From: Cyanophora paradoxa CCMP329
Lineage: Eukaryota; Plantae; Glaucophyta
NCBI GenBank assembly: GCA_004431415.1
Contig: QPMI01000477.1
Span: forward strand, 620,001-684,000
Direction: 5' to 3'
DNA: 64,000 bases
Numbering within the stretch: the first letter of the stretch is position 1; each line of letters begins with the position of its first letter. Under the pieces are notes generated by a model. That model was given only the letters and a program-made list of their open reading frames with translations, made no database searches and was not told the DNA's origin. A program made the position numbers and the translations under genes. This document shows positions 1,190 to 22,843 of the stretch, one piece after another.

Positions 1190-1358
1190 ACCGACAAAAC
1201 CAAAAGTCTCCAACAAAATAAATTTAGTCGAGGGCATTCATAAAAATAACAAAGGGTTGGCTCGATCATCGAACTCTAAAAATAACAGAATGATTATATT
1301 TGTGGTTCCAGCGCGTTTCCCACGGGTTTCTCAGAGCAGATCGCGCTGAGAAAAACGA

Positions 1359-1616: not shown

Positions 1617-1635
1617 GTTGTCCTTTTCTACTCTC

Positions 1636-1706
1636 TTAATATATGTTAAGAAATCTTTAAGTAGTTTTTCTGTCTGTATATAGCGAATAAACTCCTGTCA
1701 AATTTT
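1636..1706 (-). promoter_or_regulatory. Putative viral promoter (AAAATTTGAC ... TACTTAAAGA ... ATATATTAA)
   Basis: Second copy of the motif triplet seen at 1134-1189. Confidence 0.5.
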
Positions 1707-1965
1707 GGTCCCGATTGCAGAGCATCCAGTACGAAAGAAGATGCTGGAAAAATGATAAAGCCACCGATACCCAGAAGGTTCACTTGTCGGCTGCAAGTTT
1801 CTACCACTGAACCCGGTAGAACAGGTGATTAAAGTGATTTACCTATGGATATTTCACTTCGCTCTACAACGCCTCCATAAAAATGAAGAAGTTTTGAGCC
1901 TACGGGATAGGATTGGTTACGTAGCGCTAACAATGTTTGAGAAATTATATTATTCAGATTGATCC

Positions 1966-2727: not shown

Positions 2728-2763
2728 TTGTAATATTGAAACAAATTTATTCTACAGTATTTC

Positions 2764-3651: not shown

Positions 3652-3703
3652 TCTGTTTAATAAAGCATTTTAAAAATTTCTTTTGGTATTTTAAACATAA
3701 GAG

Positions 3704-4928: not shown

Positions 4929-5008
4929 AGTTCTTTTCTTTTGTTAGTGTAGGAAGCGCAATTATTTGTAGGTGTGTACTTTATTTTGTTTTTTATCTTA
5001 TTACTGTA

Positions 5009-5767
5009 ATGGATAACACAGTAAATCTTGATGATATTCCGGAGTTCGATCCGAGTAAGACGGTTCGAATCCCGACAAGAATTTTGAATGTTGGTCGCTC
5101 CAATACAGGTAAGACAATGTTCACAAAATACTTACTTTACGAGCTTCGTGACAAGATCGATCAAATCGTTATATTTAGTTCAACAGCTTTTACTGGACAA
5201 TTCAATGACATCACCCATCCCGATAACATCTATGAAGAGTGGGATGATAACATTGTTTTGAGATTGATCAGTATGCAAAAGAAACGAATTGAGAATAACG
5301 AAAAGCGAAATAACCTAGTTATCATACTCGATGACATGATAGGTTCAAATTTGGATATGCATAATTCGGCTGTGTTATCTAAATTAGTAACGAGTGGAAG
5401 ACATTATTCAATCTCGGTAATCTTTAATGTTCAGCGTTTGTGTTCTATTTCTACTACCATTCGTCGCAATGTGGAGTTCGTTGTATTTTTCAATATTCTT
5501 GGGAACGAGAAAGAGTTCAATTGCGCCTTTGATGAGTACAATGGTGGTTTGGATAAGAAGACCTACAAGGAATTGCATAGACTATGGGGTTATAATTACC
5601 AAACTGTCATAGCTAGCCTGCAAGGTTATGATATCAAGACCTATACTGATAGAGCAGTACTCACTGATGATGATATAAAGGGCTTTAAGAAGTTTGTGAA
5701 GAGAAAAGCAATTAAAAGGAGTCAGATGGCTCGGATTCAGCGAGAAATGACCACAATCAGTGTGTAA
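5009..5767 (+). CDS. A32-like (FtsK/HerA superfamily) genome packaging ATPase
   Basis: Walker A GRSNTGKT, Walker B LVIILDD, and A32 signature TSGRHYSISVIFNVQ...IRRN. Confidence 0.92.
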   Translation: MDNTVNLDDIPEFDPSKTVRIPTRILNVGRSNTGKTMFTKYLLYELRDKIDQIVIFSSTAFTGQFNDITHPDNIYEEWDDNIVLRLISMQKKRIENNEKRNNLVIILDDMIGSNLDMHNSAVLSKLVTSGRHYSISVIFNVQRLCSISTTIRRNVEFVVFFNILGNEKEFNCAFDEYNGGLDKKTYKELHRLWGYNYQTVIASLQGYDIKTYTDRAVLTDDDIKGFKKFVKRKAIKRSQMARIQREMTTISV

Positions 5768-6011
5768 AAGGTCGATTTTTGAGAAATGTTGTATAATAAG
5801 GTAGCTTGAAATACTGTGGGGATTGCACAGTTGCGTAGAGCTTAAACAGCGCTTCAAACCGATATGCAGAACGTTGCGAGATCATAATCTGGTGATGAGA
5901 TACAAGCGTTTGAAGATGCCGATAATCGATTTACCGAAACTTCGGTGAAACGTGAGCGAAACTTGAACCGTGAGATCATATACCCTACTATGGTTTATTC
6001 CCCGGGTTTTC

Positions 6012-6095
6012 ATGGCGCATTTAATGGCGCATTTAATGGCGCATTTAATGGCGCATTTTATGGCGCATTTTATGGCGCATTTTATGGCGCATTTG
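6012..6095. repeat. 12-bp tandem repeat ATGGCGCATTT(A/T) x7
   Basis: Directly visible. Confidence 0.95.
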
Positions 6096-6157
6096 ATGAA
6101 AAGTCCCTACTCTGTGGCATGAACCAATCAGAAGCCAGCAAATTTAAAATTAATATA

Positions 6158-6260
6158 TGAGGTATTATCTGAGATATAATCTGAGGTATTATCTGAGATA
6201 TAATCTGAGGTATTATCTGAGGTATTATCTGAGGTATTATCTGAGATGTTATCTGTGATA
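6158..6260. repeat. 12-bp tandem repeat TGAG(G/A)TAT(T/A)ATC x~8
   Basis: Directly visible. Confidence 0.9.
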
Positions 6261-6703
6261 TAAACCTGGGGAGAAGTTGAAGGGGGATACAACAAAACAA
6301 GTAGCACACCAATCAGATTGCGTCACACATATATACATATACATCATGACAATATACACATCGCCGTGATCGTCATGATCTCCCGAATAAGCCGGTGTGT
6401 CATATATATCAGATACATATACATCATCATCATGACGTCATATATGAATATATATCACATATACACAAATTGATATGTTATAGGTTTGACTATAAATCGA
6501 TTTCCTATGATATATATGATATATATTACAGTGATATATTGACGTATATACGATTCAAAAACAATTAAAATTCTATTGTTTTTATTGTCGTTTCTATTGT
6601 TGTTTCTAGTGTAACAAATACAGTAAAAAATCGTTCAAAAAATACAGTAAAAAATGAGAGGTTTTCTTTCGAGGTTTTAACTAAACTTACTTAGTTATTC
6701 ATG

Positions 6704-7092
6704 GGAGACACGGCGGATGAAAAGGATATAACTTCGATTAAATATAATTAATCGAGATTATGATATAACTTCGATAAATAAGATTTAAGATATAACTTCG
6801 ATTAATTCGATTTTTGTTACTGAGGCTTACTGAGATTTAGTGAGATTTGGAATTGGGTTACTGTGAATGGTTTGTTTTTCTTGGGAATTGTTTTGGAGAC
6901 ACGGCGCATAAAAAAGATATAACTTCGATAAGATATAATTAATCGAGATTATGATATAACTTCGATTAATTCAATGTTTCTTACTGAGGCTTACTGAGAT
7001 TTACTGATATTCAAGATTGGGTTACTGGGAATGGTTTGTTTTCTGATTTGTTTTTGATTTTTTCGCGGGTATTTTTTTGGAGACACGGCGCA
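6704..7092. repeat. Two ~190-bp direct repeats delimited by three GGAGACACGGCG copies; putative terminal region of element A
   Basis: GGAGACACGGCG at 6704, 6895 and 7079; each unit has GATATAACTTCGAT sub-repeats and TTACTGAGGCTTACTGAGATTT. Confidence 0.9.
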
Positions 7093-7393
7093 GTGCTGAG
7101 CTCCCAATGCAAAGATTGTGGAGTATGTAGGTCTGAGATCGAAACTCTATGCTTTCAGAACTGAGACCTTTGATAAAATAAAGATGTCTGGGACTTCCTC
7201 AAAAGAGGTTCACTTTGATGATTTCAAAAGATGCCTGTTTGAAGGCATCACCAAAACAGTAGCAGTAGTAAACAAGCGAAGGCAAGACCACAACCTATAT
7301 GATTTGGAGAGCAGAAGGGTGGCTCTAAACCAACTCGATAGCAAAAGGAAGATATTAGACGATGGAATTCACAGCATTCCATTTGGGCTCTAA
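7093..7393 (+). pseudogene. 5'-truncated protein-primed DNA polymerase B (C-terminal ~100 aa)
   Basis: (AEL)PNAKIVEYVGLRSKLYAF...FDDFKRCLF...HNLY...VALNQLDSKRKILDDGIHSIPFG is the typical Polinton pPolB C-terminus. There is no ATG, and the upstream DNA is non-coding repeat. Confidence 0.88.
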
Positions 7394-7551
7394 TCTACTT
7401 CATCAATCTTTCTTTTTCTTTGGTTTCGCTCTCCAAGAAGTAACAAACCGCGAATTAAATGCAGCAGCCATATACATCTTAATCCTGGATCATTGGGCTC
7501 AATTGCAAAGTAGTTTGGAATTGTGTTCTCCTTCCACACAGACTCTTGCAT
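7390..7551 (-). CDS. Small hypothetical protein (53 aa), not in ORF track
   Basis: MQESVWKENTIPNYFAIEPNDPGLRCIWLLHLIRGLLLLGERNQRKRKIDEVD; fills the gap between pPolB and integrase, its stop overlaps the pPolB stop, A-rich start context, RKRK motif. Confidence 0.5.
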   Translation of the reverse strand: MQESVWKENTIPNYFAIEPNDPGLRCIWLLHLIRGLLLLGERNQRKRKIDEVD

Positions 7552-7576
7552 TTATTATATGAGAGATAAGGTAAAG

Positions 7577-8977
7577 ATGCCTTCTACACAAATAGGATTG
7601 AGACAACCACCAAGAATTGTGAGAAAAGAGGCAATTGAAGATCGAGGGAATATCCTGCCCATCACAGTTCCAGTGGAGGAGAAGAGCAGTCGAATATTAA
7701 AAAGATCAGAGATGGTCAAGCAATTAATCCCAGAGACACTCCCAGCTGAGACAGCACCAAAAGAGTCAAAGATTGCTAAGAAGTTCTATGATCCCAGGAC
7801 AGGCTACAAGGGATTTACTGCAATGAGACAGGAACTACCAGAGGAGAACTACAAGAAAATGAGAGAATGGTATGATAAGCAGGAGGTTGTCCAAATTAAT
7901 GCACCTACCCTATCTCGAAAGAGAGATCCCATGATTCCAATTAGGCAACCCCTTGATACATATGTGATTGATCTGCTCTTGTTTCCTGCATACAAAAAGC
8001 AGAATGATGGTTATGATACATTTATGAGTGCAATGGAATCAACCCTAAGAACTGGGTTCATCATTCCAATGAGAGACAAGAGTGCTCTTACTACACTTGC
8101 AGCATTCAAGCAACTTGAACAGAGAGTCCCCAGACCAATTGTTCGCATTCAGAGTGATAGTGGAAGCGAATTTACCAATGTCTTATTCACAGATTATTTG
8201 GGAACGAAATTCATTGAGCATCAACTAAGTGATGTTGCAGATCACAGAACCCAAGGTCGGATTGAAGCCTTTAACAGACAGATCAAGAGATTAATCACAA
8301 ACTACTGCATTGCAAATAATACTGCACGATTTTTTGATGTGTTGGGTGATATTGAGTATAATTATAATAATACCATCCACTCTGCAACCAAGAGAAAACC
8401 AGCAGAGACCACAGAAGCCCACTACAAAGAGATAGTGAATATGGAGGATCAGAGATTCAAGAAATCGATTGAGTATCTTGATGCTCTGAAACCTGGAATG
8501 TTTGTGAGAGTGAAAGTTGAAAAGAATCCATTTGCAAAGCAGGGTGTTAATTGGTCTCGAATTGTTTATAGTGTGGAGGGCAGAGAGGGCTTCAAATTCA
8601 GAATCAGAAGTCCCAGTGGTGAGATAGTTGATGGTAGATTCGCTTTTCATGAACTGCTTCCCATTAAAGGTGTTGAGTATCATGAAACTCCCACAGTGGA
8701 TGCCCTTGAACAGGCAAAAGAGGAAGCCAGGGTTGATTCAGCAATCAGAAAGGAGGGCATAGAAAAAGCAAGTGAAGTTCCAAAAGAACCCCTCACAGAA
8801 GCAAGAGCACAAAAGAAGGGCAGAGTAGAGAAAGAGTTGAAGAAGTTGACCATAGCAGGAACCCAGAAATTATCAGAAGTTAACAGTCAGAGATGGTATA
8901 ATGACTTTTCAACCACCAAGGAAACATATACTGCACCCCAAACTCGATTTAATTTACGAAGTGGTCAGAGGAAATAG
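7577..8977 (+). CDS. Retroviral-like (rve) DDE integrase, Polinton c-integrase type
   Basis: Catalytic VIDL, IQSDSGSEF and IEAFNRQIK; YNNTIHSATKRKP; C-terminal GMFVRV...NWSRIVYSV. Start set at GTAAAG-ATG (7577). Confidence 0.93.
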   Translation: MPSTQIGLRQPPRIVRKEAIEDRGNILPITVPVEEKSSRILKRSEMVKQLIPETLPAETAPKESKIAKKFYDPRTGYKGFTAMRQELPEENYKKMREWYDKQEVVQINAPTLSRKRDPMIPIRQPLDTYVIDLLLFPAYKKQNDGYDTFMSAMESTLRTGFIIPMRDKSALTTLAAFKQLEQRVPRPIVRIQSDSGSEFTNVLFTDYLGTKFIEHQLSDVADHRTQGRIEAFNRQIKRLITNYCIANNTARFFDVLGDIEYNYNNTIHSATKRKPAETTEAHYKEIVNMEDQRFKKSIEYLDALKPGMFVRVKVEKNPFAKQGVNWSRIVYSVEGREGFKFRIRSPSGEIVDGRFAFHELLPIKGVEYHETPTVDALEQAKEEARVDSAIRKEGIEKASEVPKEPLTEARAQKKGRVEKELKKLTIAGTQKLSEVNSQRWYNDFSTTKETYTAPQTRFNLRSGQRK

Positions 8978-8978
8978 A

Positions 8979-9221
8979 TTAACAACGCTTTCGGAATCTC
9001 TTAGACCTCTGGCGAATTTTCCTCATTTGTCTATCTTTTTCAATAATTTCCAAGAAGAAAGTTTCAAGATTTGAAACCAGTTGGTAATTATAAACAAAGA
9101 ACAGTCTCACATGCTCTGGCTGTGACATGAAGAAATTGTAATAGAAAGCAGTTTTGAAATCATGGATCCAGTCTGATTGGGCAGCATGGATGATAGCAGG
9201 GTCTTGGTAGATGGGATCCAT
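8979..9221 (-). CDS. Small hypothetical protein (80 aa) with basic C-terminus
   Basis: ATG at 9221 (MDPIYQDP), convergent with the integrase, ends RKIRQRSKRFRKRC. Confidence 0.55.
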   Translation of the reverse strand: MDPIYQDPAIIHAAQSDWIHDFKTAFYYNFFMSQPEHVRLFFVYNYQLVSNLETFFLEIIEKDRQMRKIRQRSKRFRKRC

Positions 9222-9387
9222 AGCAGAAGTTGAGAGAATCCAGAAAATCCTTGGCAATTTTTTATTTTGTTAGTGCCCGATCTCGACGAAACCTGATAGC
9301 TGCTGCCGAGAGGATTCCGAATCTGCTTTCAGAATTGAAAACGGAGCAGTTGGTAATAAAATACATATGTATGACCGAGATTGATGG

Positions 9388-9488
9388 AGTTTCAGTGATG
9401 TTTCGGTGAAGTTTCGGTGCGAAGTTTCGGTGAAGTTTCGGTGTGAAGTTTCGGTGAAGTTTCGGTGAAGTTTCGGTGAAGTTTCGGT
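9388..9488. repeat. 11-13-bp tandem repeat GAAGTTTCGGT x~9
   Basis: Directly visible. Confidence 0.93.
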
Positions 9489-9516
9489 CAATAGGATAAT
9501 TCTATAAATCGAAAAA

Positions 9517-9719
9517 TGGTTGCGCGTCATCGCAACCATCATCGCAACCATGGTTGCATCATCGCAACCATCATCGCAACCATGGTTGCATCATCGCAAC
9601 CAGGTCGCGCAACCACTCAATCGGGAAAAAAATGGTTGCGCAACCACTGAATCGGAAAAAAATTGGTTGCGCAACCAGGTTGCGCAACCAGCGCAACCAT
9701 GGTTGCATCATCGCAACCG
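9517..9719. repeat. Array of direct and inverted GCAACCA/TGGTTGC motifs (TCATCGCAACCA units, TGGTTGCGCAACCA palindromes)
   Basis: Directly visible. Confidence 0.9.
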
Positions 9720-9983
9720 TCGGCATCTTCAAACGCTCGTATCTCACCACCAGATCATCAGATCGTGACCGTCGACATAGCGCTGGAAAGCGCTTGAAAA
9801 GATCTACACGATGGTGTAGGTATCAAGTATATATACGTATAGATTACATACAAATATTTCGAAAAAACGATTAATCGGCTACTTTCTACTGTAAGGAACA
9901 TACAGTAAAATAATGCGAAAATACAGTAGCTACTGTTAAAAAAGCCATAATCTGGCGCACCATACATCAGAAGTCCTGATGTA

Positions 9984-11525
9984 TCATACACTTCGAATAA
10001 ATGCACCTGTCACATCCACTCTCATAGTTGGGGCATTTATATATACCAGTGGATAAATACGAATATACCTTGTCCTCAGAGGGTAGCCAATATAGAAAAC
10101 GTCTCTAATAGAGGTGGGAAACCCAGAACTGTATGAGACATCACCACTATTGTGGGCATTATTAATGGTTTCACACATGAACACTCTATTCACACCTTCA
10201 TACTTGATAAATGACCAGGAAACACCATCTTGTGATGTTGCAACATTGAAGGTCTTAACAAAGGCATTGGTCACACCAGAACCATATGCAATTATAGATG
10301 CTATCTCAAATATATATGGGAAGGATACTTGGAGATACTCAGTGGGAACACTCCATATCCCATCAGGAGCAGATGCATTTGCCTCCCAACCTGTTAAAGA
10401 AGGTCTTGCTTTAAATGCCTCCCTTCCAATTTTCGATGATGAAGCAGTGAATGCACCATCTGACAGAAGATACCAGTTAGCATCAATGGGAGGTATATTA
10501 TTCAGAGTGGATGATATATAGAACCTTGCAGGGTTCTTGATTTCGTAATTTGCAACCAGTAAATCACAGAGTCTATCAATCATTACTGTGTTTGCTGCTA
10601 TATACATTTCGGTTGCATCTATCATATCAGGGATCTTAGAGGTATCATCCAGAGAGTTTACTATGGTCTTTGGAAGTGGAACAGAGAGTCTATAATATCT
10701 TGCATATCCTTGGTCATCATTATATGGGAGAAACTCTTGCATCTTTTCCAGGGCTGAGAGTTCACTTGCAGCCATCAACATATTAATTAATGGACTCCCA
10801 GAGGTCGAAGCAATCCATGAGAGAATGCCCCAGCTGTTGACATCTTCATAGGAATATCCCACATTTGGGGCATCTGTTTCATTGACCTCACCACAGGATA
10901 TACTGATCACAATTATATCATCATCATCATCATAGATCTTTTTAGCATGGCTGTAACCACATACACTGGGATTGTTGTTACCTGATATTGCACCATCAAT
11001 TAGAGACATCCCATCATAGTTCACAGGTGAGAAGTAAGTAGGTGCAGCAGAGGTGGATCTTGCAGCAATCTTGCTGGGGATGGATTTGTAGGAATTATCA
11101 TTGGTGATAAAGATGGGCTTCATACTCACAGTATCAAAACTTGTGATCACCACATCTTTTAGAGAGTCTTGAATCAGTGACTCACCAGTAACAGTGAGAA
11201 TGGCTGTCTCCAATGGGGTCACATCATACTTGGTGTTGAAAAGGGCATTATCTATAATATTTCTGGGATTTGCAAAGATTAATGGAAGTTGATTGAGATA
11301 TGTTGAATGCAAATCGGTAGCAGTGAGTTTGGGTTCGTTTGGAAATTCGAGATTTTTCACATTGAGACCAATCGCAATAATCCCACCAGTGGATGTTCCA
11401 CTCACCAGGTCAACAAGGTCTATTACTCTTTTTCCAGTTCGAGTTTCGATTTCTTTTAGCAATCTCGTAATAATTATACCACGAGCTCCCCCACCTGAGA
11501 GACTGAGAATTACACGAAGGGGCAT
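9984..11525 (-). CDS. Patatin-like phospholipase fused to a C-terminal F5/8 type C (discoidin) domain
   Basis: LSLSGGGARG, GTSTGG nucleophile, STSAAPTYF, IDGA. C-terminal FTASSS, EYLQVSF, VKTFNVATSQDGVSW, RTRYIRIYP and MRVDVTG. Start set at GTAAAG-ATG (11525). Confidence 0.9.
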   Translation of the reverse strand: MPLRVILSLSGGGARGIIITRLLKEIETRTGKRVIDLVDLVSGTSTGGIIAIGLNVKNLEFPNEPKLTATDLHSTYLNQLPLIFANPRNIIDNALFNTKYDVTPLETAILTVTGESLIQDSLKDVVITSFDTVSMKPIFITNDNSYKSIPSKIAARSTSAAPTYFSPVNYDGMSLIDGAISGNNNPSVCGYSHAKKIYDDDDDIIVISISCGEVNETDAPNVGYSYEDVNSWGILSWIASTSGSPLINMLMAASELSALEKMQEFLPYNDDQGYARYYRLSVPLPKTIVNSLDDTSKIPDMIDATEMYIAANTVMIDRLCDLLVANYEIKNPARFYISSTLNNIPPIDANWYLLSDGAFTASSSKIGREAFKARPSLTGWEANASAPDGIWSVPTEYLQVSFPYIFEIASIIAYGSGVTNAFVKTFNVATSQDGVSWSFIKYEGVNRVFMCETINNAHNSGDVSYSSGFPTSIRDVFYIGYPLRTRYIRIYPLVYINAPTMRVDVTGAFIRSV

Positions 11526-11574
11526 CTTTACTTTACTCAAATTTAATAAATCTCTATAAGTAGAGTAAACAGGG

Positions 11575-14500
11575 ATGAGTTTCAATTATCCAGCAAACCT
11601 GCAAACCATTCCTTCATCAGGAAGAGGGAAGGCAGATAACAAACATGTAAATTTCGATAACTTGACAGCCAGAGGGTCAATCTCAATCGACCATAGTGCA
11701 GATGAACCCTCAAAGACTCACCCAAGAATGCATGCACTTTCAATAAACGAAATGGATCCTGAAAAAGAGGATGTGAGTGTTGCTTTCAGCATGGGGAATG
11801 TGAAATCGAATCAGGTAGCCCAGATTGAAGCAACCAGGAGCAGACCAAGAAAACTGAAAACCAGTGGAACCCATCCAGATATTCCAACTCGATTCGATAG
11901 TGGAAGGTTGATATTCAATGTTCAAAATGAGAAGGGTGGGCATCAGAGTGGTTTAAGAATCTATAATGAAGGATCAAATGCAATTGCACAAATTCCCGAA
12001 ATATTACAGATAGCACCCCATGGAGAGACCAACAAAATCGAGTTCACTAACAATGTTTATCCACGAGATATTGTGGCGAATTCGGCTTCTAATGCGCAAT
12101 TCGGTTTCCAACTACCAAGTGATACAGCAAAGAATAAGGCGTCTATCACTGTCAACAGTAGCCCCACTCAACCAGTAACAATTCATTTACATCCAGACCT
12201 TGTCGAAATGGATAGGCACCTTTTACCTCTGGTAACTAATACCAAAGATCTTGGTATCAGAACCAGGCAATGGCGAAATATCCATGGAAGCAATGTCTAT
12301 GCAAATGGAGAGAAACTTGTAAGTGAGAAGACCATAAGAGAGATCTTTGAATATTATGGACCTGTCCCAGTTCCCTTTCCTCTTCCATGGGATCCACCAG
12401 ATTTAACACCAAAAAAGCAACCAGGAAGAGAATACACAGCAGATGAGACAGTTCCCTTTGGGCAGCACATTGTGAGTTGGGAGCAGGTTCGAAATAAACC
12501 TATAATTGAACCGAGAAAGCAAATAGATGAGCAATATTTACCACCTGAAATCGATATTTTGGAGCTTGACGAATACCAATTCGTTCCAGATGAGGAGGAA
12601 TACCTACCTGATGGTTTCGACCCACAGGAGTATGAATATGATCAATATGACCCCAATGAGGAAGAGTATTTACCAGATGGTTTAGATCCACAAGAGTATG
12701 AATATGAGCAGAATTATGAACCCCATGAGGAATATTTAGCAGATGGTCACGAACCACCAGTTGTTGATTATGAGCAACCATATGAACCCCATGAAGAATT
12801 ATTACCAGATGGATTTCGACCTGAGATTTGGGAATTCTTCCCTGATTGGGAGCAGATCAACAATAAACCAGCCAGATTTCCACCAGAGGATCACAACCAT
12901 GACTGGGATGAGATCTTAGGTAAACCAGACAAATTCCCACCAGAGGATCACAGGCATGATTGGGGTGATATTGATGGAAAACCAGAAAAGTTCCCACCAG
13001 AAGACCATTTGCATATTTGGAGTGAAATACGAGAACAACCCACTTTTGCATCAGCAGGTAATGTATTATTAGGAGATATTAACAATGGTGTGAGTCTCTA
13101 TCAAAATATAGACACACCAGCAAGATTACAATTAAATGATTACTATGTGAATCGAAAGGGAATAGATGCAGGCACCACAATGGAAGGCGAATTATACATT
13201 AGACCCCCTACAAGAAATGGAATATTGGGACTTGGTGGTGGTATTGAAATTAAAGACACCAAACCAGGTATCTATCTTACCAGCTACTATGCAGATGACA
13301 TCCCAATGACAGGGGGTTTATTTTCTCTACCATCTGATCCAGCAAACTATGATGATAAAAACGCTGCAATCCAAATTAATGTTACTGATGTGAGTGATTT
13401 AGATTCATCAAGACCGAAATTAATATTCAGCAGAGAGAGATTGTTACCAGATGCACTTTTGGGGAACCGAGATGACTATAAACAATGCGAGGTTGCATGG
13501 ATCAAAACGAATTATAATGGTGGAGTTGGTGAGGGAGTTTTAGAAATCAATCAGAGGGCAGCAGCAAAGAATATTCACAATGAGACCATATCAAGAGTGG
13601 TAACAGAGGATTACCTTCAAGCCCAAAACTACATAGATGAAACAGAACTGAATACAATTATTGCAGGTATTAATATTGGTGTGACAGGGGATTACCTTCC
13701 TCTCACAGGAGGGATTATTGATGGAACAGTGACAGCATGCAACTTCTTTGTCCATACTGAAAGCAATCAAACCTTCCCTGTTGTCCATCCAGGAGGTGAG
13801 TATGAGATACCTGATGATCCAGCTATTATGCCCATTAAGATTGATCTCCCTTCTGATTATGTTGGAAGGGGTGAACTCAAAATCATCTCTTTCACAGGAG
13901 ATTATAATGATCTCACTAATAAACCCACCCCATCTAATCTACACCCTGTTGCATATTCAGGTAGCTTCCTTGATCTGAATAATCGAGCACACACCCACAC
14001 AAAGGCAGAGATCACAGATTTCGCACACACTCACACAAAATCCCAGATTACAGATTTTGCACACTTCCACACCAGAGCAGATATTACTAATTTTGCTCAC
14101 ACTCATGTTAAATCAGAGATTTTAGATCTCGGAAATGTTGCATATGTTGGTCACACCCATACCAAGGCAGAGATTACAGATCTTGGAAATGTTGCATATG
14201 TAGGTCACACCCACACTAAGGCAGAGATTACAGATTTTGCACATACTCATGATTGGAATACAGATATTTATAACAAACCAGCGATTTTCTCGGGCAACTA
14301 CAATGATCTGACCAATAAACCCACCCTTGATCCCTTTACAGCAAATAATATCACTGCAAATGCAAACCTTCTCATTGGATCAGGTTACTTTCTCGATTAT
14401 GACCCATATATTATGCCTGATCCTCCTGTTATTTGGAATTTCCACAATTCAACCCTTTCTACTAACTCTATATCTTACTATCAGGATAAAACACTCCTTG

Positions 14501-14892
14501 TTCGTGGTAATGCATATGCAAGAGAAATGTGGGTCATGGATCCTCGGGACAACTCCAAGGTGACTAAGTTAGCACCCCAATACATGCTTGATAACCTGAT
14601 TAGAAAAGGGAGACATGAAATGACAATTGCAAATCCTCAAATTGGGGGCAGTTCAGCAAGGCAAAACCATACCATTACATTAAATTGGAGTCCTGCCTTT
14701 GCATCTGCTCCATCTGTTGTTGTTACATTGCAGGGACTACCTGCAACAAATGTGGAAATCGATTATAAAATAGGAATATCAAGCAACTCAACAACCTCTA
14801 CCACAATCAATCTTGTTATTTGGGCAGCAGGATGGGTAACCATTCAACCACAGTGGCTTCAAATTGCAATTCATTGGATAGCAACAGCATAA
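11575..14892 (+). CDS. Large phage-tail-fibre-like virion fibre protein (1105 aa)
   Basis: HTHTKAEITD(F/L) x~7, FPPEDHxHxW...GKP x3, G(D/N)YNDLTNKP x2, acidic EEYLPDG repeats, P...DLG...QWRNI motif, and lectin-like tip FASAPSVVVT...IHWIATA. Confidence 0.82.
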   Translation: MSFNYPANLQTIPSSGRGKADNKHVNFDNLTARGSISIDHSADEPSKTHPRMHALSINEMDPEKEDVSVAFSMGNVKSNQVAQIEATRSRPRKLKTSGTHPDIPTRFDSGRLIFNVQNEKGGHQSGLRIYNEGSNAIAQIPEILQIAPHGETNKIEFTNNVYPRDIVANSASNAQFGFQLPSDTAKNKASITVNSSPTQPVTIHLHPDLVEMDRHLLPLVTNTKDLGIRTRQWRNIHGSNVYANGEKLVSEKTIREIFEYYGPVPVPFPLPWDPPDLTPKKQPGREYTADETVPFGQHIVSWEQVRNKPIIEPRKQIDEQYLPPEIDILELDEYQFVPDEEEYLPDGFDPQEYEYDQYDPNEEEYLPDGLDPQEYEYEQNYEPHEEYLADGHEPPVVDYEQPYEPHEELLPDGFRPEIWEFFPDWEQINNKPARFPPEDHNHDWDEILGKPDKFPPEDHRHDWGDIDGKPEKFPPEDHLHIWSEIREQPTFASAGNVLLGDINNGVSLYQNIDTPARLQLNDYYVNRKGIDAGTTMEGELYIRPPTRNGILGLGGGIEIKDTKPGIYLTSYYADDIPMTGGLFSLPSDPANYDDKNAAIQINVTDVSDLDSSRPKLIFSRERLLPDALLGNRDDYKQCEVAWIKTNYNGGVGEGVLEINQRAAAKNIHNETISRVVTEDYLQAQNYIDETELNTIIAGINIGVTGDYLPLTGGIIDGTVTACNFFVHTESNQTFPVVHPGGEYEIPDDPAIMPIKIDLPSDYVGRGELKIISFTGDYNDLTNKPTPSNLHPVAYSGSFLDLNNRAHTHTKAEITDFAHTHTKSQITDFAHFHTRADITNFAHTHVKSEILDLGNVAYVGHTHTKAEITDLGNVAYVGHTHTKAEITDFAHTHDWNTDIYNKPAIFSGNYNDLTNKPTLDPFTANNITANANLLIGSGYFLDYDPYIMPDPPVIWNFHNSTLSTNSISYYQDKTLLVRGNAYAREMWVMDPRDNSKVTKLAPQYMLDNLIRKGRHEMTIANPQIGGSSARQNHTITLNWSPAFASAPSVVVTLQGLPATNVEIDYKIGISSNSTTSTTINLVIWAAGWVTIQPQWLQIAIHWIATA

Positions 14893-14917
14893 TTAAGATT
14901 CTCACACTATTACAAAG

Positions 14918-15985
14918 ATGACCTCTCTATTAGAAATCCCAAACTATGAACTTGCCGCCAAATCATTACATAGCACCTCCCATGAAGTAGTCGACTCTAC
15001 GCCCGGTTTTATTTGCACTGAAACTACAAGCAATACCTCTTTCACAGAGAATAATATACTGAGAGTCAAAGAAATTCGATGTGATCGCAATAATGGTAAG
15101 ATAAGAACCACAGGTATTATTATCTCGAATACAAATCAAGTCCAATCAGGTCAGGTAGTCCCGGATTCAGCAATATATGATAATGTGGGTGGAGTCACCA
15201 CAGCACAGATAGTGACTTTTGGGAACACAAGCAATAATTCCGCTCTTGTAGTCAAGAGTGGAGGAGCCTACATTGGAGATGGAGCAAATGTAGCAGGAAC
15301 TGTCACAGCAAATCAACTATCTGTGAGTGGGACAAGTAGTTTTGGTGGGTATATGAATTTCAATGGTGGGCTTTCAGGGAATATTCAGTATGGAACACTC
15401 ACACTTTCCACAAGAATAAACACACCTGAGATTGACAACATGAGTGACACAGTCATGAATTACAAGAGGAATGGGGACACCATCTTTTCTCTTCAAAAAA
15501 CAACTCAAATAGATAACACAACTGTTCAACATCTCACACTTCCGACAAGCAAATATCTCAAATTAAGTAGCCATCCTCGTTTCTTTGCAACAAAACAGCA
15601 ACCAAATGGGTCAATAACTGCAACAATTTCCTCAATAAATATATATCCAACAACAGGAGTCATAGTGAACCAAGGAAATCATTTCGATCCTGCGACAGGG
15701 CTTTTTACTGCCCCTGTTACAGGAAACTATCTTGTCACATTTAGTGGATCCTGTTATTGGACTGGAAGAACAACTAATATTGTTACATTTTTACAGAAAA
15801 ACGGAAGCTCATCTGGAATTGAAGTTAATACTAATTATGCATCTGCATATGCAAACAATGGGTTCGAAATTATTGTAGACCTTCAAGCCAATGATTCCAT
15901 CAGAATATCATATAATAGCAGTGGTGGAGGTTCTATATATTATAATATCAGATGGTTCTTTGGATGCATGCTTGTCCATTCATAA
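14918..15985 (+). CDS. Fibre paralogue 1: shared N-terminal module plus C1q-like head
   Basis: C-terminal HPRFFA...NQGNHFDPATGLFTAPVTGNYLVTF...VDLQANDSI...FFGCMLV is a C1q domain. Confidence 0.85.
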   Translation: MTSLLEIPNYELAAKSLHSTSHEVVDSTPGFICTETTSNTSFTENNILRVKEIRCDRNNGKIRTTGIIISNTNQVQSGQVVPDSAIYDNVGGVTTAQIVTFGNTSNNSALVVKSGGAYIGDGANVAGTVTANQLSVSGTSSFGGYMNFNGGLSGNIQYGTLTLSTRINTPEIDNMSDTVMNYKRNGDTIFSLQKTTQIDNTTVQHLTLPTSKYLKLSSHPRFFATKQQPNGSITATISSINIYPTTGVIVNQGNHFDPATGLFTAPVTGNYLVTFSGSCYWTGRTTNIVTFLQKNGSSSGIEVNTNYASAYANNGFEIIVDLQANDSIRISYNSSGGGSIYYNIRWFFGCMLVHS

Positions 15986-16007
15986 TATTGTCTACATAAT
16001 ATAAAGT

Positions 16008-17027
16008 ATGACCACTCAAATAGCTGTTCCTGTGTTCTGTTATGCTGCCCCGAAATTACATCAACTCAACCACACAGTAACAGATGCAACCCCTGGGTTT
16101 ATTTGCACTGAAACAACAGGTGCCGATTCGTTTTCTCAAAACTCTGTGATCAGATGCAAAGAAATTCGATGTGATCGCAATGGGGGCAAGGTGAGAACCA
16201 CAGGTTTAATTGTCTCCAATAAGAACCAAGTCCAATCAGGTGAGATTGTTTCTGATTCCACAATATATGATGATGTAGGAGGGTTCACCACACCCAAAAT
16301 AGTAACCTTTGACAACACAATTAATAACTCTGCTCTTGTTGTGAGAAGTGGAGGAGCTTACATTGGAGATGGGGCAAGGGTTGATGGAACCCTAACAGCA
16401 AATCAGGTAAGTATTACAGGAACAAGCACCTTTACAGGATTGGTAACAGCAAATGCTGGTATTTCACTACCAATTGCCTCACAATCCATAATCACAGCAA
16501 CAAACAAGGTTGTCACACCAGAAATCGATACAGGAGCCAATGTAGACCTTCTTCTCAAACGAAATAGTAACACTGTCGCTACTCTGGAAGCGAATAGTTT
16601 GACAGTTAATACAGGGTGTTATCTCAAAACATCACATCCACGATTTTCAGTTCAACTTGGCTACAATCACACTGCTACAACTTCTGCTGATCTCATAAAC
16701 TGGGCAACAGTTCGAGTAAACAATACCAATTCATTCAGCACATCAACTGGAAGGTTCACAGCACCTGTTGCAGGACACTATCGATTTTCAGTATTCACTT
16801 CTTCAACCACAACTTCTGCTATTGAATTGTTTCTCAGGGTAAACAATGCAGATCCAGGGGGATTGAGCATTTCCCAAGTTCACAATCTGTCAACAACAAA
16901 TAAAGCGCTGTGTTTCTCTTGCATTCTCAATCTTGCCCAAAACGAATTTGTTACACTTGTTACAAATTCAGTCGGTTCATATGCAAGTAGCACAGCATTC
17001 TCAGGAGAATTAATAAGCATCGTTTAA
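16008..17027 (+). CDS. Fibre paralogue 2: shared N-terminal module plus C1q-like head
   Basis: HPRFSV...NNTNSFSTSTGRFTAPVAGHYRFSV...LNLAQNEFV...FSGELI; the first ~140 aa are highly similar to paralogue 1. Confidence 0.85.
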   Translation: MTTQIAVPVFCYAAPKLHQLNHTVTDATPGFICTETTGADSFSQNSVIRCKEIRCDRNGGKVRTTGLIVSNKNQVQSGEIVSDSTIYDDVGGFTTPKIVTFDNTINNSALVVRSGGAYIGDGARVDGTLTANQVSITGTSTFTGLVTANAGISLPIASQSIITATNKVVTPEIDTGANVDLLLKRNSNTVATLEANSLTVNTGCYLKTSHPRFSVQLGYNHTATTSADLINWATVRVNNTNSFSTSTGRFTAPVAGHYRFSVFTSSTTTSAIELFLRVNNADPGGLSISQVHNLSTTNKALCFSCILNLAQNEFVTLVTNSVGSYASSTAFSGELISIV

Positions 17028-17049
17028 TTTTCTTATGGTAGTTTAGGAA

Positions 17050-17316
17050 ATGTCGAATATATACCAAGTGGTTCTATCTGATATAGAAAAGTTGGGAATG
17101 GAATATTGCTGCGCATCTGTTCAGGACTGGATTGATAATGCTGCCCACAACAGGGCAAGAATCGCAATTGATGAGATTGTTCAGAAAGAGATCCAATCTT
17201 GCATCTCATCAGGAGTTCAGATACCAACCTCAAAGGAAGCCATTGTGTTACAGGCATTCCAAAGGGGAACTGTAAAGAAAGGCATCGAGTATAACAATGT
17301 CACAGAAGAGCAATGA
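17050..17316 (+). CDS. Small phage-type protein accompanying C1q fibres (possible fibre chaperone)
   Basis: QDWIDNAAHNRARIAIDEIV...VLQAFQRGTVK; I recall this motif from small marine-phage proteins encoded beside C1q-domain genes (recollection, not searched). Confidence 0.65.
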   Translation: MSNIYQVVLSDIEKLGMEYCCASVQDWIDNAAHNRARIAIDEIVQKEIQSCISSGVQIPTSKEAIVLQAFQRGTVKKGIEYNNVTEEQ

Positions 17317-17351
17317 ACATTATTTTTCTATCCTTCTTAGTAAAAGAAGCA

Positions 17352-18197
17352 ATGGGTGAATACAATCGAGTTCAACTGCCTATATATTCCCTTGGATCCC
17401 CTGCAATGCATTTTCGCCAGCATGAAGTAAATGATGAGGTTCGTGGTTTAGAATCCACAGAGAGACCCAATTCCAATGGTAACTCCTTTGATAAGAACTC
17501 AATTATTCGAGTTAAAGAACTGAGAGCAGACAAGAATTCTGGGGTTGTTAAAACAACTCGACTCCTTGTCTCAAATGCGAACTTCTTCCAACCAACTAAT
17601 GGAGGTCCTGATGCTTACAGTGTTGATCTGAAAGCCCTCGATTTCGATAAGAATTCTGCTGCTGTAACTGTGAGATCAGGTGGAGCATTTATTGGTGGTG
17701 GTTGCAGAGTTTCAGGTCAACTCTCCTCATCAATTGCATACAATGATGTCCCAGATACTCTTGAACAGAATGTTGAAGACCCCCAACGAATTCGATTATA
17801 TATACCAGTTGCACAACAGCCACTTATTCAATTTTACCAAGGTTATACTGTCACACTTGAAAACTCTGAATTGATTGAAGGAACCAAAAGAGTAATGAGA
17901 GGGCTGGTCATTCCTTCTGCAATGCTTTCTTTATGTAGAGCCAACAATAACCAGCCAGGTCACAGATACAATTTCAGTGTTCAAGGATATGATCATTTCG
18001 GCACAGGGTTCTGTGTTTATAATAACAATTTCACCTATGATCTGTTTGTTACAGATATTGGAAAATATACAATTACAGTTATGGGTATCAGAACAGATAT
18101 AGCTGCTGTCTCAGCTCTAAGAGGTGTTACTCCTGATACTCTTTCTCAAACAGGGTTTTACCAGGAACCAGATGTGATTGATAACCCAACCCCATAA
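17352..18197 (+). CDS. Fibre paralogue 3: shared N-terminal module plus non-C1q head
   Basis: IRVKELRADKNSGVVKTTRLLVSN and VRSGGAFIGGG align with paralogues 1, 2 and 4; the C-terminus (..DP.RIR.Y.P...V.GIRTD) aligns with paralogue 4. Confidence 0.78.
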   Translation: MGEYNRVQLPIYSLGSPAMHFRQHEVNDEVRGLESTERPNSNGNSFDKNSIIRVKELRADKNSGVVKTTRLLVSNANFFQPTNGGPDAYSVDLKALDFDKNSAAVTVRSGGAFIGGGCRVSGQLSSSIAYNDVPDTLEQNVEDPQRIRLYIPVAQQPLIQFYQGYTVTLENSELIEGTKRVMRGLVIPSAMLSLCRANNNQPGHRYNFSVQGYDHFGTGFCVYNNNFTYDLFVTDIGKYTITVMGIRTDIAAVSALRGVTPDTLSQTGFYQEPDVIDNPTP

Positions 18198-18220
18198 ATT
18201 ATATATCACTTTAATGTAAA

Positions 18221-19048
18221 ATGGCTGCCCCAGTAGAGCGAATTATTACACCCCAGCTATCATTAGCAGCACCTGCAAATCACGTTTTGCAGCATGCTAC
18301 TTTTGATGATGTAGAAGGTCTCCAATCCACAGAAGTCCAACCTACCATGAATACTTTTGGTTCCACCCACAAACTGAGATTGCAGGAACTCAGATGTGAT
18401 AAAAATAATGGTATAGTTAAGACAACGAAACTCCTTGTCACAAATGCAAACTTTTCTGCCCATTATGGAGACCCAGACAGTTATGGTGATCCTCTTTCTA
18501 CTTACTCTTTTGAATCTCGGTCGGGAGCTATTAACTGCAAAACGGGGGGAGCATATATTGGTGATGGTCTTCGGATTGGTGGAGCTGTTGGTGCGCCTCT
18601 TTTCGTAAATGATCAACCCAATCCCATTGATCCCAACACCAGAATTCGCACCTATGTCCCCAGCATGAATGCACCATATATTATCAAGATCTTCCCAATT
18701 GTTGTGAATGAACAGACATCAGTAGTTGATTCTCTTGTTGAGATTGGTGACCACTACAAGGTGGTCGTAGATATTCCACCAGATGTTTATGCTGTCTGTC
18801 AAGTAGAGGGTGGAACCCCAAATATTGCAGTTGTGATCACCCCATATGACAATTTCGGAATTGCTTATCATGGAGTGAATTTCGGTCTTGAAGATTACCA
18901 GTTCTTGGTGAGAGCCACCAGGTTTGGTATCTACAAATGCATTCTCTATGCTGAGAGAACCGATGCTATTGCAAGACAGAATACATATGCAGAATATTAC
19001 GGCACAAATCGCTACTTCCCCATTTTCGGGCAGGATACTGCTCCATAG
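18221..19048 (+). CDS. Fibre paralogue 4: shared N-terminal module plus non-C1q head
   Basis: LRLQELRCDKNNGIVKTTKLLVTN, KTGGAYIGDG; the C-terminal DQPNPIDP...VDIPP...VVITP...LYAERTD pattern resembles phage fibre C-terminal domains. Confidence 0.78.
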   Translation: MAAPVERIITPQLSLAAPANHVLQHATFDDVEGLQSTEVQPTMNTFGSTHKLRLQELRCDKNNGIVKTTKLLVTNANFSAHYGDPDSYGDPLSTYSFESRSGAINCKTGGAYIGDGLRIGGAVGAPLFVNDQPNPIDPNTRIRTYVPSMNAPYIIKIFPIVVNEQTSVVDSLVEIGDHYKVVVDIPPDVYAVCQVEGGTPNIAVVITPYDNFGIAYHGVNFGLEDYQFLVRATRFGIYKCILYAERTDAIARQNTYAEYYGTNRYFPIFGQDTAP

Positions 19049-19073
19049 AAATCTCAGGTATATATAGAGAGGG

Positions 19074-19346
19074 ATGGATGATAAAACAAAGAAATTCATA
19101 GAATCTGCAATGATGGTTCATGGTGATGCTAAATTCGATTATAGTGAGACAGTCTATAAGAAAGCACAAGAGAAGGTCTCTGTTAGATGCCTTAAATGCA
19201 ACAAGATCCTCCAAACCTACCCATTTAATCATGTAAGGGGAAGTGGATGCAGAGAGTGCAACAAGAAATCCTCTCATGCTTACAGAAAAAAGACGACATC
19301 AGGAATTGTAATAGATGATAAACCAGTAGTATTATATTTTGATTAG
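19074..19346 (+). CDS. Stand-alone DUF723-like zinc-ribbon protein
   Basis: FIESAMMVHGDAKFDYSETVY...VSVRCLKC...PFNHVRGSGCREC; no nuclease domain attached. Confidence 0.78.
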   Translation: MDDKTKKFIESAMMVHGDAKFDYSETVYKKAQEKVSVRCLKCNKILQTYPFNHVRGSGCRECNKKSSHAYRKKTTSGIVIDDKPVVLYFD

Positions 19347-19492
19347 ATCTTTGAAAGAGAGATGAGAATCTTTCCCCATTTTCCCTTGGTGATTATGCAT
19401 GTGTCAAAGCAGCTGGGACAGGTCTTGTGGTAGTGCAACAGAATGATATCCACCAACTCATAAGGTAGCACTCTTGCTAAGATGGTTCGCAT
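19343..19492 (-). CDS. 49-aa microprotein with F-box-like motif and CxxC, not in ORF track
   Basis: MRTILARVLPYELVDIILLHYHKTCPSCFDTCIITKGKWGKILISLSKI; stop overlaps the convergent zinc-ribbon stop. Confidence 0.45.
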   Translation of the reverse strand: MRTILARVLPYELVDIILLHYHKTCPSCFDTCIITKGKWGKILISLSKI

Positions 19493-19532
19493 TCTACCAA
19501 TCGCGTTTTTAATTTTTCTTATTTATTCATAA

Positions 19533-19934
19533 ATGAATACTCATCGAGGCTTCCATGTGATGCTGGATTACAAATTCAGAACCCAATTAGCAGTAGGAGT
19601 GGAAGACTTGGAGACAACAACCAGGTGGTTAATGCAGTTCTTACAAACTATTATTCAAGAGCAAGGTATTCGAGTAGTTCACAAGCATTGCGAGATTTTC
19701 GATGGTGGTCTTTCTCCTCCTGGTTTTGCAATGGTTCTTCTGCTGGATGAGAGCCACTGCACTGCTCATTGTTACTCAAATGAAGGTATGTTGGCGATTG
19801 ATATATTCAGTTGTGGATTAGAAGCAGAGAGAAAAACCACGAGAGTATCTCATGAGATAGATGAGAGAATAACAGGTGTGTTTTCAGGGTTGGAGAAATC
19901 GGAGAAACATAGAGTATTGCGATTTCCGAGTTAG
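19533..19934 (+). CDS. speD: Prokaryotic-type (class 1B, SpeD/SpeH-like) S-adenosylmethionine decarboxylase proenzyme
   Basis: GFHVMLD, F...PPGFAMVLLLDESHCTAHCY...GMLAIDIFSCG with the E-SH pyruvoyl self-cleavage site; 133 aa. Substrate not provable from sequence. Confidence 0.88.
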   Translation: MNTHRGFHVMLDYKFRTQLAVGVEDLETTTRWLMQFLQTIIQEQGIRVVHKHCEIFDGGLSPPGFAMVLLLDESHCTAHCYSNEGMLAIDIFSCGLEAERKTTRVSHEIDERITGVFSGLEKSEKHRVLRFPS

Positions 19935-19965
19935 TTGACACTGAGAAATTCAGAATTTCACATGG

Positions 19966-20472
19966 TCTTACTGAAATCCGTCTTGTGACACCTATTTAAT
20001 TGACTGTGACGCCTCTTTAATTGACTGTGACGCCTGTGACGCCTGTGACGCCTACTTTCAAACTTTTTAAAATTTTCAAAAATGACAGACTTCTGAAAAC
20101 TGCCGTCACAGCCGTCACAGGCGTCACACCCAATTAAAAATGGAATCTCTTTCTCTTACTGAGATTTTCGAGAATATATTCTTGTCTTACTGAAATCCGT
20201 CTTGTGACACCTCTGACACCTACAAAACACTATCCATTAATCAACCTTTTTGAAAATGCGAAGTTGTCTTACTGGATATCGTCTGCAATTTCGCTGTGAC
20301 ACCTAATTTAATTGAGTGTGACGCCTGTGACGCCTGTGACACCTACTTTCAAACTTTTTAAAATTTTCAAAAATGACAGACTTCTGAAAACAGGCGTCAC
20401 AGCCGTCACAGGCGTCACAGACATTCCACCCCTCTTACTGACTTTCTCAAAAACAAAACTATCTCTTACTGA
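19966..20472. repeat. Duplicated iteron-like module: (TGTGACGCC)x3 - 49-bp AT-rich spacer - inverted x3, plus CTTACTG motifs
   Basis: Copies at 20026-20128 and 20317-20419. Confidence 0.92.
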
Positions 20473-20531
20473 ATATCATTTGAATACTACCTGTCACACT
20501 TGATCTCAATTATTCTGTTTTATAGAACATA

Positions 20532-20798
20532 TGCAATCTAATCGATTGTTCAATTGGAGACCATGCACCTCTGTGACACTTTTCGATCTAAAATATACAT
20601 CCGCAATCTCATCGATTGTTTAATTGGAGACCATGCAACTATGTGACACTTTTTGGGTGCAAAAGTGCCCATCCCCATTATAATCGATTGTTTAATTGGA
20701 GATAATGCAACTCTGTGACAGTTTTTGGGTGCAAAAATGCAAATCAGCAATCTCATCGATTGTTCAATTGGACACAATGCAACTCTGTGACACTTTTT
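20532..20798. repeat. Four 70-72-bp direct repeats (ATCGATTGTTYAATTGGA...ATGCAACTCTGTGACACTTTT)
   Basis: ATCGATTGTT at 20541, 20611, 20683 and 20755. Confidence 0.92.
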
Positions 20799-21109
20799 GC
20801 GTTTTTCGATACAGAATGGGCGGTGGTCTACTTCAATACAAGAGAGATATATCGAGTTTATGCGAATTTATGCAATTTAATCGCGATTATTTCGTTCTTT
20901 AAGTAGTTTAATGCAAATTAATCGCAGTTATATATGTAATCGACAAAGAACATAATCAATCGATATAAGATCAATTGATTCAATCGTAAATATGCATAAA
21001 GTTAAACACGTTTTTCATTTTTAATACAAAGTTTGCATTAATTTATACAAAGTTTGCATAAAAAGTTAAAGAATTTAATCGATAAATACGTATTTTAGTA
21101 TTAATTTTG

Positions 21110-21204
21110 ACACATATGTATAAACTTATTTAAATCCAGAGTGAATCGAGATCGCGAAGCGATCGAGATGAACGAGGGATTTAAATAAGTTTATACATAT
21201 GTGT
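21110..21204 (+). other. 95-nt terminal hairpin of element B
   Basis: Perfect 28-bp arms 21110-21137 / 21177-21204, inner stem with G.A mismatches, GCGAAGC cap at 21154-21160; ends exactly at the host junction. Confidence 0.95.
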
Positions 21205-22843
21205 GCGGCGGCCCCGGCGATGACTGCGGCGATGCAGCCGGGGAGGGAGAGACCTGCCGCGCAGTGCGCACGTGTCATTATTTCAATCGGATCCATCAGG
21301 ATTCACTCGGAACCGGAGTGGCGCACCAATCTCCCAGGCAATTGAAAGGCCGTCGCGGGTCCCGCGGCCGCCCTGGAGAATCACAGTCAGCAATTTGCGA
21401 GCTAGCGCTAGCGCTCGCGATCGAGGGCTTATAGTTGCCTGAATGAAGGCAAGGGCGGTGCTGAGAACCACCCCAAAAGCGTTGACGACTAGCACCTGCC
21501 GAGAAATTGAGCCGGTTTAGAACTGCGCAGAGGCCACAGATCAATAAGGCTGCGGTGGTGGACGATTCGGACCTGGAGGCAGCGTAGTTGGACAAGGGGG
21601 GAGGACAAGAGAGACCCCACCGCCACCGCCACAAGCAGGCACGACGGCATCGTGAGCAGCTGCGCGTAACGAATGAAAGCTGCAATCAGAAGTGCATCGA
21701 ATTCGGCGCGCCCCGCAGGCGATTGCAGGTAGCGACTATACTCATCGAATACATTAATAGATTTCGAAATAGATCTTAATGTGCGTACCCAGGAAATGCA
21801 GAAAGCGGTGCAATACAGCGTTGGGATTGCGGTGCAAGCGACGGCCTGCGGGTGGCCGGATCGTATTAATACTATACGGAACGTATATGTGTGGAAGGCA
21901 CGCGTGCCTGCCACCGGCGCCGCAGAAGGGAGTCCTCGTGGCGCGATAGGAGGGCGAAGGCAAGCGCAGCGCATGCCACGGTGGCGATGGCGAGGGTGAC
22001 GGCGAAAGGCACGATGTTTCCCTCGAGAGGGGCCTTCCACATGGCCAGAGCCAGGACAGCGCCTGTCATGATCATGATCAGGAAACTTCATTTACAATAG
22101 AATGTCAGGAATTAATATAGATACCTGCTGCGGCCAGTGGGATGGCGGAGTACGAGATTGCGCCCCTGCGATTGCTCCAAGGTCAGGCCAAGGGGGGGAT
22201 TCCGGGCCGCGGGCCGGGCGCGGCCGCGGGAACTCGGCCGTGGACGGACCGGGCGCGGGCGATGCGGGTTCGGCTCCAGTTCTGGAGAAAAGCTCGTTCG
22301 ACGGTCTGGTTGGAGAAACGGCGCGGAAGAAATTCGAAGGGGGCGGATCCGGAGCTTAAGGGGGCTTGGGGCGGGGCCTGCAGTTGGCTGCGCATGCGCA
22401 TGCGAGGAGCCGGGGAGGGAGATGCGGAGCCCTCAATCTGGGGGCTTGGCGGATCCGGAGTCGGGGCCTCTTCGAATCCGCCCAACCGCAAGTCGTGCGC
22501 GTGTACTCGGTTCAGGGGAAGGGGAGAAACGGAGCGAGACAGGGCCGAAGGGCGAAGAAGAAGGCTTCCGCGGCTGGCGGGAGATCCGGACACGGGGGAG
22601 GATTTGTCAGAGGGAGACACCACATGTACACCGATCGATGGGCCGCGGCCGGGGCCCGCGGCTGGCCGCCCCGGCGATGCCATCGATTTCTTCAAATTCG
22701 CTATCGATGTCAATGTCGGGCTCGCCGGGAGTGATGGGGGCGCTGGCCGCGGGGGCGTTGGCGTTGTTGGGCGCGCCGGCCGCGGCAGTTGAGATGACAA
22801 AACGATCGCTGGCCGCGGCCGGGCTCAAGTTGGTCATGATCAC
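21205..22843 (-). pseudogene. Host multi-exon, multi-pass membrane protein gene interrupted by element B
   Basis: Hydrophobic exons (IVPFAVTLAIATVACAALAFALL; CLLVAVAVGSLL; VVNAFGVVLSTALAFIQ; LSIAWEIG|LSLPGCIAAVIAGAA) separated by short introns; the last exon is open up to the junction. 5' end uncertain. Confidence 0.55.

Follow-up and report, generated by a model that had tools for sequence, protein, structure and literature searches.

What kind of end does a Polinton-like virus (PLV) have when it carries both a polymerase of the pPolB type and an rve integrase, and how is such an end copied? The question is raised by a palindrome in the window, by which we mean the whole 64-kb stretch of Cyanophora paradoxa CCMP329 DNA analysed here. 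The palindrome lies at the extremity of the end region of an integrated element, termed B, and adjoins host DNA. It folds into a hairpin whose mismatches are all G/A oppositions, and it is the terminus of the Polinton-like virus and not an artefact. The features of the locus, given with strand where one was assigned, are as follows.

1 to 7092: element A, AT-rich and virus-like, with an A32 ATPase and probable capsid genes.
7100 to 7393, plus strand: C-terminal remnant of a pPolB, 97 residues, recognised by matches to the polymerases of two related loci, L156 and L151.
7559 to 8977, plus strand: rve integrase (rve E 0.003, below the cut-off), with D138, D200 and E236 present.
9984 to 19934: cargo of element B, from domain and ORF annotation.
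19935 to 21109: AT-rich non-coding end region, likely a terminal inverted repeat (TIR), marked by repeats and by high copy number over 20400-21109.
21110 to 21137, plus strand: inner arm of the 28-bp outer stem, an inverted copy of the terminal 28 nt, from pairing.
21138 to 21176, plus strand: purine-rich core of 11 Watson-Crick and 7 G·A positions with a GCGAAGC cap, from pairing.
21177 to 21204, plus strand: terminal arm and 3' end of the element, with a GT reiteration at its end, from pairing, depth and a contig start.
21205 to 21900: host flank, GC-rich and of single-copy depth, from depth and GC content.

Element B (7100-21204) is AT-rich against a flank of 65% GC. Its left part lies beyond the window and its pPolB gene is interrupted in this copy. 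The preliminary description had stated that B encodes a pPolB, and this holds to the extent that the C-terminal remnant is present, with 97 residues only within the window. The remnant matches the C-terminus of the L156 polymerase (E 1e-7), which is placed with PF03175 at 0.98 in the Atlas, as well as L151 (E 6e-10), and aligns to the C-termini of PF03175-type polymerases that lie upstream of related integrases. When used alone as query it gave no match in the Pfam, PDB, Atlas, homolog and phage searches. The integrase has a complete rve DDE triad formed by D138, D200 and E236. The cargo consists of a patatin-discoidin fusion, a PTR fibre-like protein, two C1q-domain proteins, two unknown ORFs, a zinc-finger ORF and an AdoMet decarboxylase, the last of which (S-adenosylmethionine decarboxylase, 19533-19934, Pfam E 6e-11) is the last ORF of B. 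According to the accessible text of PMC12220804, the patatin-discoidin fusion occurs mainly in rhizarian and glaucophyte PLVs.

The end region behind the cargo contains tandem repeats with units of 9, 21 and 72 bp as well as two imperfect, subterminal inverted repeats. It is likely one TIR of the element, whose left partner would lie beyond the window; no partner was found within the 64 kb. The subterminal inverted repeats (20016-20138 and 20307-20423) are related to each other and are built of 9-bp units around an AT-rich spacer. They are possibly protein-binding arrays of the end region. A search of Rfam over 19900-21400 gave 15 matches, all 15 below the gathering scores.

Element A is apparently inserted in the polymerase gene of B, and the A32 ATPase and the probable capsid ORFs belong to it. 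The capsid genes, designated as probable from sequence motifs, include a probable major capsid gene split over several ORFs (3704-4928). The end of element A has 12-bp and ~190-bp repeats, and no hairpin comparable to that of B was found there. A 73% inverted repeat is formed by 5826-5922 in the end region of A and 9720-9816 in an intergenic repeat region of B. At the far side of the window, 44059-63998 holds one or more host genes with repeats of the Ig-like, PKD and filamin type and an extended array of 42-bp tandem units.

In the hairpin, positions 21110-21137 pair with 21177-21204 over 28 bp with no mismatch. The 18 inner positions consist of 11 Watson-Crick pairs and 7 G/A oppositions, of which 21138-40 against 21174-76 make one 5'-GA/GA tandem and one adjacent A·G, with the others at 21143-44 against 21170-71 and at 21148-49 against 21165-66. 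All three tandems are in 5'-GA/GA order. The GCGAAGC cap occupies 21154-21160. The folding z-score of the hairpin is -11.5, with none of 200 shuffles equally good, and the longest stem of Watson-Crick and G·A pairs is 47, compared to 15 or less in 200 shuffles of 19935-21204. Base pairing and folding against shuffles thus confirmed the perfect stem and the 18-position inner stem of the preliminary description, and the restriction of the mismatches to G/A, as three GA/GA tandems and a single opposition beneath the GCGAAGC cap, was verified position by position. The presence of G/A in 7 of 7 mismatches has a p of ~4e-6 under either a uniform or a decay null. Five of the six GA steps are flanked by a pyrimidine on one side and a purine on the other. 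A GA step between a pyrimidine and a purine is a context that favours sheared pairs, and the core sequence fits a hairpin on the 3' strand closed by G·A pairs of presumably sheared geometry.

The opposite strand has T/C oppositions at the same positions. Stability on one strand, which had been proposed for this structure, is partly upheld: the G·A oppositions fall on one strand and the T/C oppositions on the other, but the ViennaRNA energies differ by only 1.2 kcal/mol (-32.7 for the hairpin versus -31.5), and those of the core alone are -6.0 versus -5.3. Because this calculated difference is small, the case for strand specificity is made from published chemistry, not from computation. Two adjacent G·A pairs leave the stability of B-DNA unperturbed and a GGA/GGA guanine zipper is described, both in the accessible part of PMC11014236. 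The GCGAAGC hairpin is reported as stable, nuclease-resistant and found at origins (PMC13037366, accessible text).

The position of the hairpin was determined from contigs of four sequencing runs placed on 20400-21900, the interval that the depth comparison covers. The runs carry one organism label (2012, 2019, 2024), possibly represent one strain, and one of them is perhaps the source of the window. The evidence consists of assembled contigs, which drop rare variants, and not of raw reads. Summed depth in the hairpin bins was 80-209x that of the flank in 4/4 runs, and single contigs were at 19, 23 and 82x flank depth; these ratios are not copy numbers, and GC bias may inflate them. The same contig recurs in all four runs, beginning at 21178 and extending into the GC-rich single-copy flank. 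GC content is 0.20-0.26 right before the hairpin and 0.76 right after it. The end of the element was placed at 21204-21207, assuming 31-letter words, and the extra GCG past 21204 is compatible with a flank shared by chance (0.59 for 20 ends). As the preliminary description had it, the hairpin coincides with the host junction, which is marked by the depth drop and the contig start, with the end at 21204 or perhaps as much as 3 nt beyond. That the hairpin is a fold-back artefact of a single assembly, a concern raised there, is excluded by the identical junction contig, and in the four runs the hairpin forms the end of a high-copy repeat.

Sister copies were followed among the 24 of 80 loose ends and the 32 of 890 pieces listed. 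The loose ends show a second stem type, in which a 10-nt block has 5 changes per arm and the arms are still complementary. One piece (X10 record 15) covers 21110-21203 gap-free and with 10 differences. It probably carries these 5+5 stem changes, and its G·A core would then be unchanged. A second core type is seen at three core-boundary loose ends, two behind 21139 (X1 and X10) and one before 21174 (X8). It has repeated GCGAAGC units, is purine-rich on the same strand, and retains the first AG and the last GAG. None of the three was flipped. In X10 record 14 the body of the element runs unbranched into the AG start of the G/A core, so that a flipped isomer is unlikely to be common there; X1 record 7 ends at 21137, the stem end, of which a flipped core is also a possible cause. 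Among the loose ends and pieces listed, the sister copies keep the stem pairing, and their core is purine-rich on the same strand.

More distant relatives were collected through the rve alignment, which gave 83 loci, 3 viral and the best 80 of 102 metagenomic. A terminal fold-back was found in 2 of the 83, L156 and L151, and purine-only mismatches in one of these, L156. In L156, a metagenomic locus, a pPolB is followed by an rve integrase (27% identity), then ~470 nt of non-coding DNA, and then an 85-nt hairpin (3463-3547) on the same strand, 1 nt from the contig end. This hairpin has 20+9 outer pairs around one bulged C, a TT loop, and the mismatches A·G, G·A, G·G and A·G, which contain the GGA/GGA motif; four purine-only mismatches have a chance probability of ~1/81. 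ACAC…GTGT ends are common to the window element and L156. It is chiefly on account of L156 that the hairpin is attributed to the virus terminus rather than to an independent repeat of the Helitron type. In L151 a fold-back whose 26-bp perfect outer stem opens on a TAG reiteration lies 25 nt from the contig end, and its inner part is decayed, with mixed mismatches and a cGTAg tip. The three elements, all with pPolB upstream of rve, share a near-perfect outer stem of 26-29 bp, and two of them, the window element and L156, have purine-only mismatches on the 3'-ended strand. The proposal that the structure is selected in the single strand with the 3' end is borne out in part: the sister copies and L156 keep purine-rich mismatches on that strand, and the best explanation of this is that the single strand itself folds.

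Four of the loci (L192-L195) represent one 12.1-kb rve element that has a large polymerase-sized ORF and a plain 150-bp TIR with no fold-back. L194 and L195 are flanked copies of this element. Its TIR starts with CATCAT, an adenovirus-like reiteration, and short reiterations open all recognisable ends, this plain one included. The rest of the 83 loci had no recognisable terminus. The palindromes of L130 and L141 are internal, AT-rich and intergenic, and the fold-backs of L001, L127 and L203 lie away from any recognisable end. In L001 an ATPase-rve module is flanked by an internal inverted repeat (1-67 and 1961-2155), part of a 174-nt fold-back. In an rve tree of 67 rows, L194 fell in one half and the window element, L156 and L151 together in the opposite half. 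The tree is not counted as support because its label test was not significant (47/500 shuffles), its branches are long, and the plain-ended label of two loci (L188 and L204) was given without inspection of their termini.

Searches with the exact hairpin patterns gave no match in viral or metagenome contigs, and single-protein locus searches gave none. The ACAC…GTGT pattern had 2 matches, neither of them a terminal hairpin of the window type. The motif CGAG-N3-GCGAAGC-N3-CGAG, by comparison, has at least 123 matches in viral contigs (L004-L125). Of the 123 listed, 61 pair through and 43 have one spacer pair in common; the spacers are paired in 13 of the 67 distinct spacer pairs among the matches listed, versus 5% expected. 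The CGAG/GCGAAGC hairpin is likely a common single-strand signal, and since the motif is common in viral contigs it is not by itself specific to B. G·A/GCGAAGC hairpins are a general single-strand motif.

How would such an end be copied? The account that we prefer, while holding it tentatively, is modelled on Streptomyces: a 3' fold-back would cap the single strand and rebuild a terminal duplex for protein-primed synthesis. The 3' end of an excised or displaced single strand would snap back in the cell, with folding nucleated by the mini-hairpin, and would be capped against nucleases. Without recourse to a panhandle, the fold-back would restore the terminal duplex as a 28-bp copy, and the polymerase and a terminal protein could then start the second strand at the reiterated end by slide-back or jump-back. 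Initiation of this kind needs short terminal reiterations, as described for phi29, PRD1, Bam35 and adenovirus in the accessible text of PMC5175343, and such reiterations are present in the window element, L156 and L151. Protein priming would yield full monomers and, without a resolution step, would keep one core polarity; one polarity is seen in the window, X10 record 14 and L156. Occasional trimming of the outer arm and refilling from the inner arm would keep the arms complementary and give concerted arm changes. The T/C oppositions of the opposite strand may let proteins tell the strands apart, and they would disfavour the extrusion of a cruciform from the integrated duplex.

The preliminary description had set the hairpin against protein priming. 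The paired 3'-OH does adjoin template, but the contrast was overstated, as Streptomyces telomeres combine 3' hairpins closed by G·A pairs with terminal-protein priming, which patches their 3' overhangs (PMC4513846, accessible text). Against the preferred mechanism as a whole, a terminal fold-back is found in only 2 of the 83 loci, the L151 mismatches are mixed and the plain-ended 12.1-kb element has none. Against protein priming in particular, the 3'-OH is paired, flush and next to template, as would be ideal for a primer, and a Streptomyces end shows fold-back extension in vitro (PMC4513846, accessible text).

The 3' arm, paired to its last base, could serve as primer itself, as in parvoviruses: the folded 3'-OH would prime the second strand, and the closed end would later be nicked after the terminal motif, perhaps by integrase 3' processing before joining to host DNA. 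Five of 28 positions have changed and the arms are still perfectly complementary, as templated copying would leave them. One polarity would also be kept on a route from single strand through closed monomer to integration, and hairpin priming has been proposed for terminal palindromes (bioRxiv 10.64898/2026.07.28.741278, accessible text). Repeated passage through closed ends, however, should flip the cores unless resolution is asymmetric, and the three core boundaries described above are unflipped. The scan of the window ORFs revealed neither a Rep nor a resolvase, and the ends have slide-back-like reiterations beside a pPolB. Self-priming is the chief alternative, possible but on balance doubtful. 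Covalently closed hairpin ends of the poxvirus kind, in which the 28-bp stem is the duplex end and the integrase opens it, would also account for arms without mismatch, for the restriction of mismatches to the core and for a palindrome that stops at the junction. Flip and flop would require both strands to fold, whereas the mismatches in the window and L156 suit one strand, and the pPolB would be redundant; ends of this kind are improbable.

Two other readings were weighed. The last 1.2 kb might be a separate high-copy, non-autonomous rolling-circle element (HINE- or Helentron-like) at the edge of the virus, with the hairpin as its end signal. The high depth of 20400-21204 and the internal tandem repeats fit such an element, and the depth comparison covers 20400-21900. 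However, the junction reads GTGT and then GCGGCG, with no AT or TT, the target of Helitrons and Helentrons in the accessible text of PMC5443660. One end is seen, no viral remainder is present beyond the junction, and L156 has a like-ended hairpin 470 nt behind its pPolB-rve pair. The hairpin is probably not a Helitron-type insert, and a rolling-circle origin as set out here appears improbable. Least probable of all is an accidental by-product of fold-back repair with no selected function. Accidental annealing is named as an alternative in the same preprint (accessible text), and the inner arms of L151 look decayed; the type of mismatch, G·A at every one of the seven and in 5'-GA/GA order, largely refutes it, and the second core and L156 reuse GCGAAGC or GGA/GGA motifs.

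Terminal palindromes of integrated virophages and PLVs and the proposal of hairpin priming are already in bioRxiv 10.64898/2026.07.28.741278 (accessible text). Polintons or PLVs with terminal hairpins mismatched only by G·A were not found in the literature, in a search that had subscription papers and bioRxiv supplements mostly outside its range. What was not found in print is a one-strand design with purine-only mismatches in pPolB-rve termini. It brings terminal palindromes into the pPolB elements, the group in which the preprint found fewest. Mismatches that suit only the 3'-ended strand would be a fingerprint of a single-stranded stage, and the 95-mer is a substrate with which protein priming and self-priming could be separated in a simple in-vitro assay. 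Excision and end copying of Polintons and PLVs have been modelled, with experiments still needed, according to the accessible text of the preprint. A broader reading, plausible yet more speculative than the mechanism preferred above, is that a lineage among the pPolB-rve PLVs converged on one-strand telomeres of the Streptomyces/parvovirus style, in which 3' fold-backs with purine mismatches take over from the TIR panhandle as origin of the second strand and serve as integrase sites as well. If true, the hairpins would be the first sequence-level evidence for a single-stranded intermediate of Polinton replication.

Among known systems, Polintons/Mavericks and pPolB-rve PLVs share with B the order of pPolB then rve, AT-richness relative to the host, a repeat-rich end, and fibre-like and patatin-discoidin genes (PMC6431247 and PMC12220804, accessible text). 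In the standard Polinton model two TIRs anneal with no terminal fold-back (bioRxiv 10.64898/2026.07.28.741278, accessible text), and the 12.1-kb element has such a plain end. Like B, the endogenous virophages of Halocafeteria seosinensis (subtypes 1, 2, 5 and 6) and PLV subtype 4 are integrated, encode rve and carry a palindrome at the extremity of the TIR. Their palindromes occur preferentially in elements without pPolB, whereas B, L156 and L151 are pPolB-rve elements; a second replicase is possible in the part of B beyond the window. The words "mismatch", "sheared" and "imperfect" do not occur in the accessible main text of that preprint, whereas the window hairpin has a core with purine-only mismatches.

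The 3' hairpins of autonomous parvoviruses resemble the window hairpin in the folded 3' end and the paired 3'-OH. They need a Rep/NS1 nickase and a host polymerase. The window element, by contrast, is a virus of the dsDNA type with its own pPolB, and no Rep was found in the window ORFs scanned. Parvovirus hairpins have been likened to Streptomyces telomeres (PMC4513846, accessible text). Typical Streptomyces telomeres (Tpg/Tap) have what is proposed here, a 3' single strand, hairpins closed by sheared G·A pairs and terminal-protein priming (same source and extent). They are bacterial and have several palindromes, an internal origin and a dedicated Tap, whereas the window element has one long hairpin and belongs to an integrating eukaryotic virus. 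It would work in a similar way without being a member of that class.
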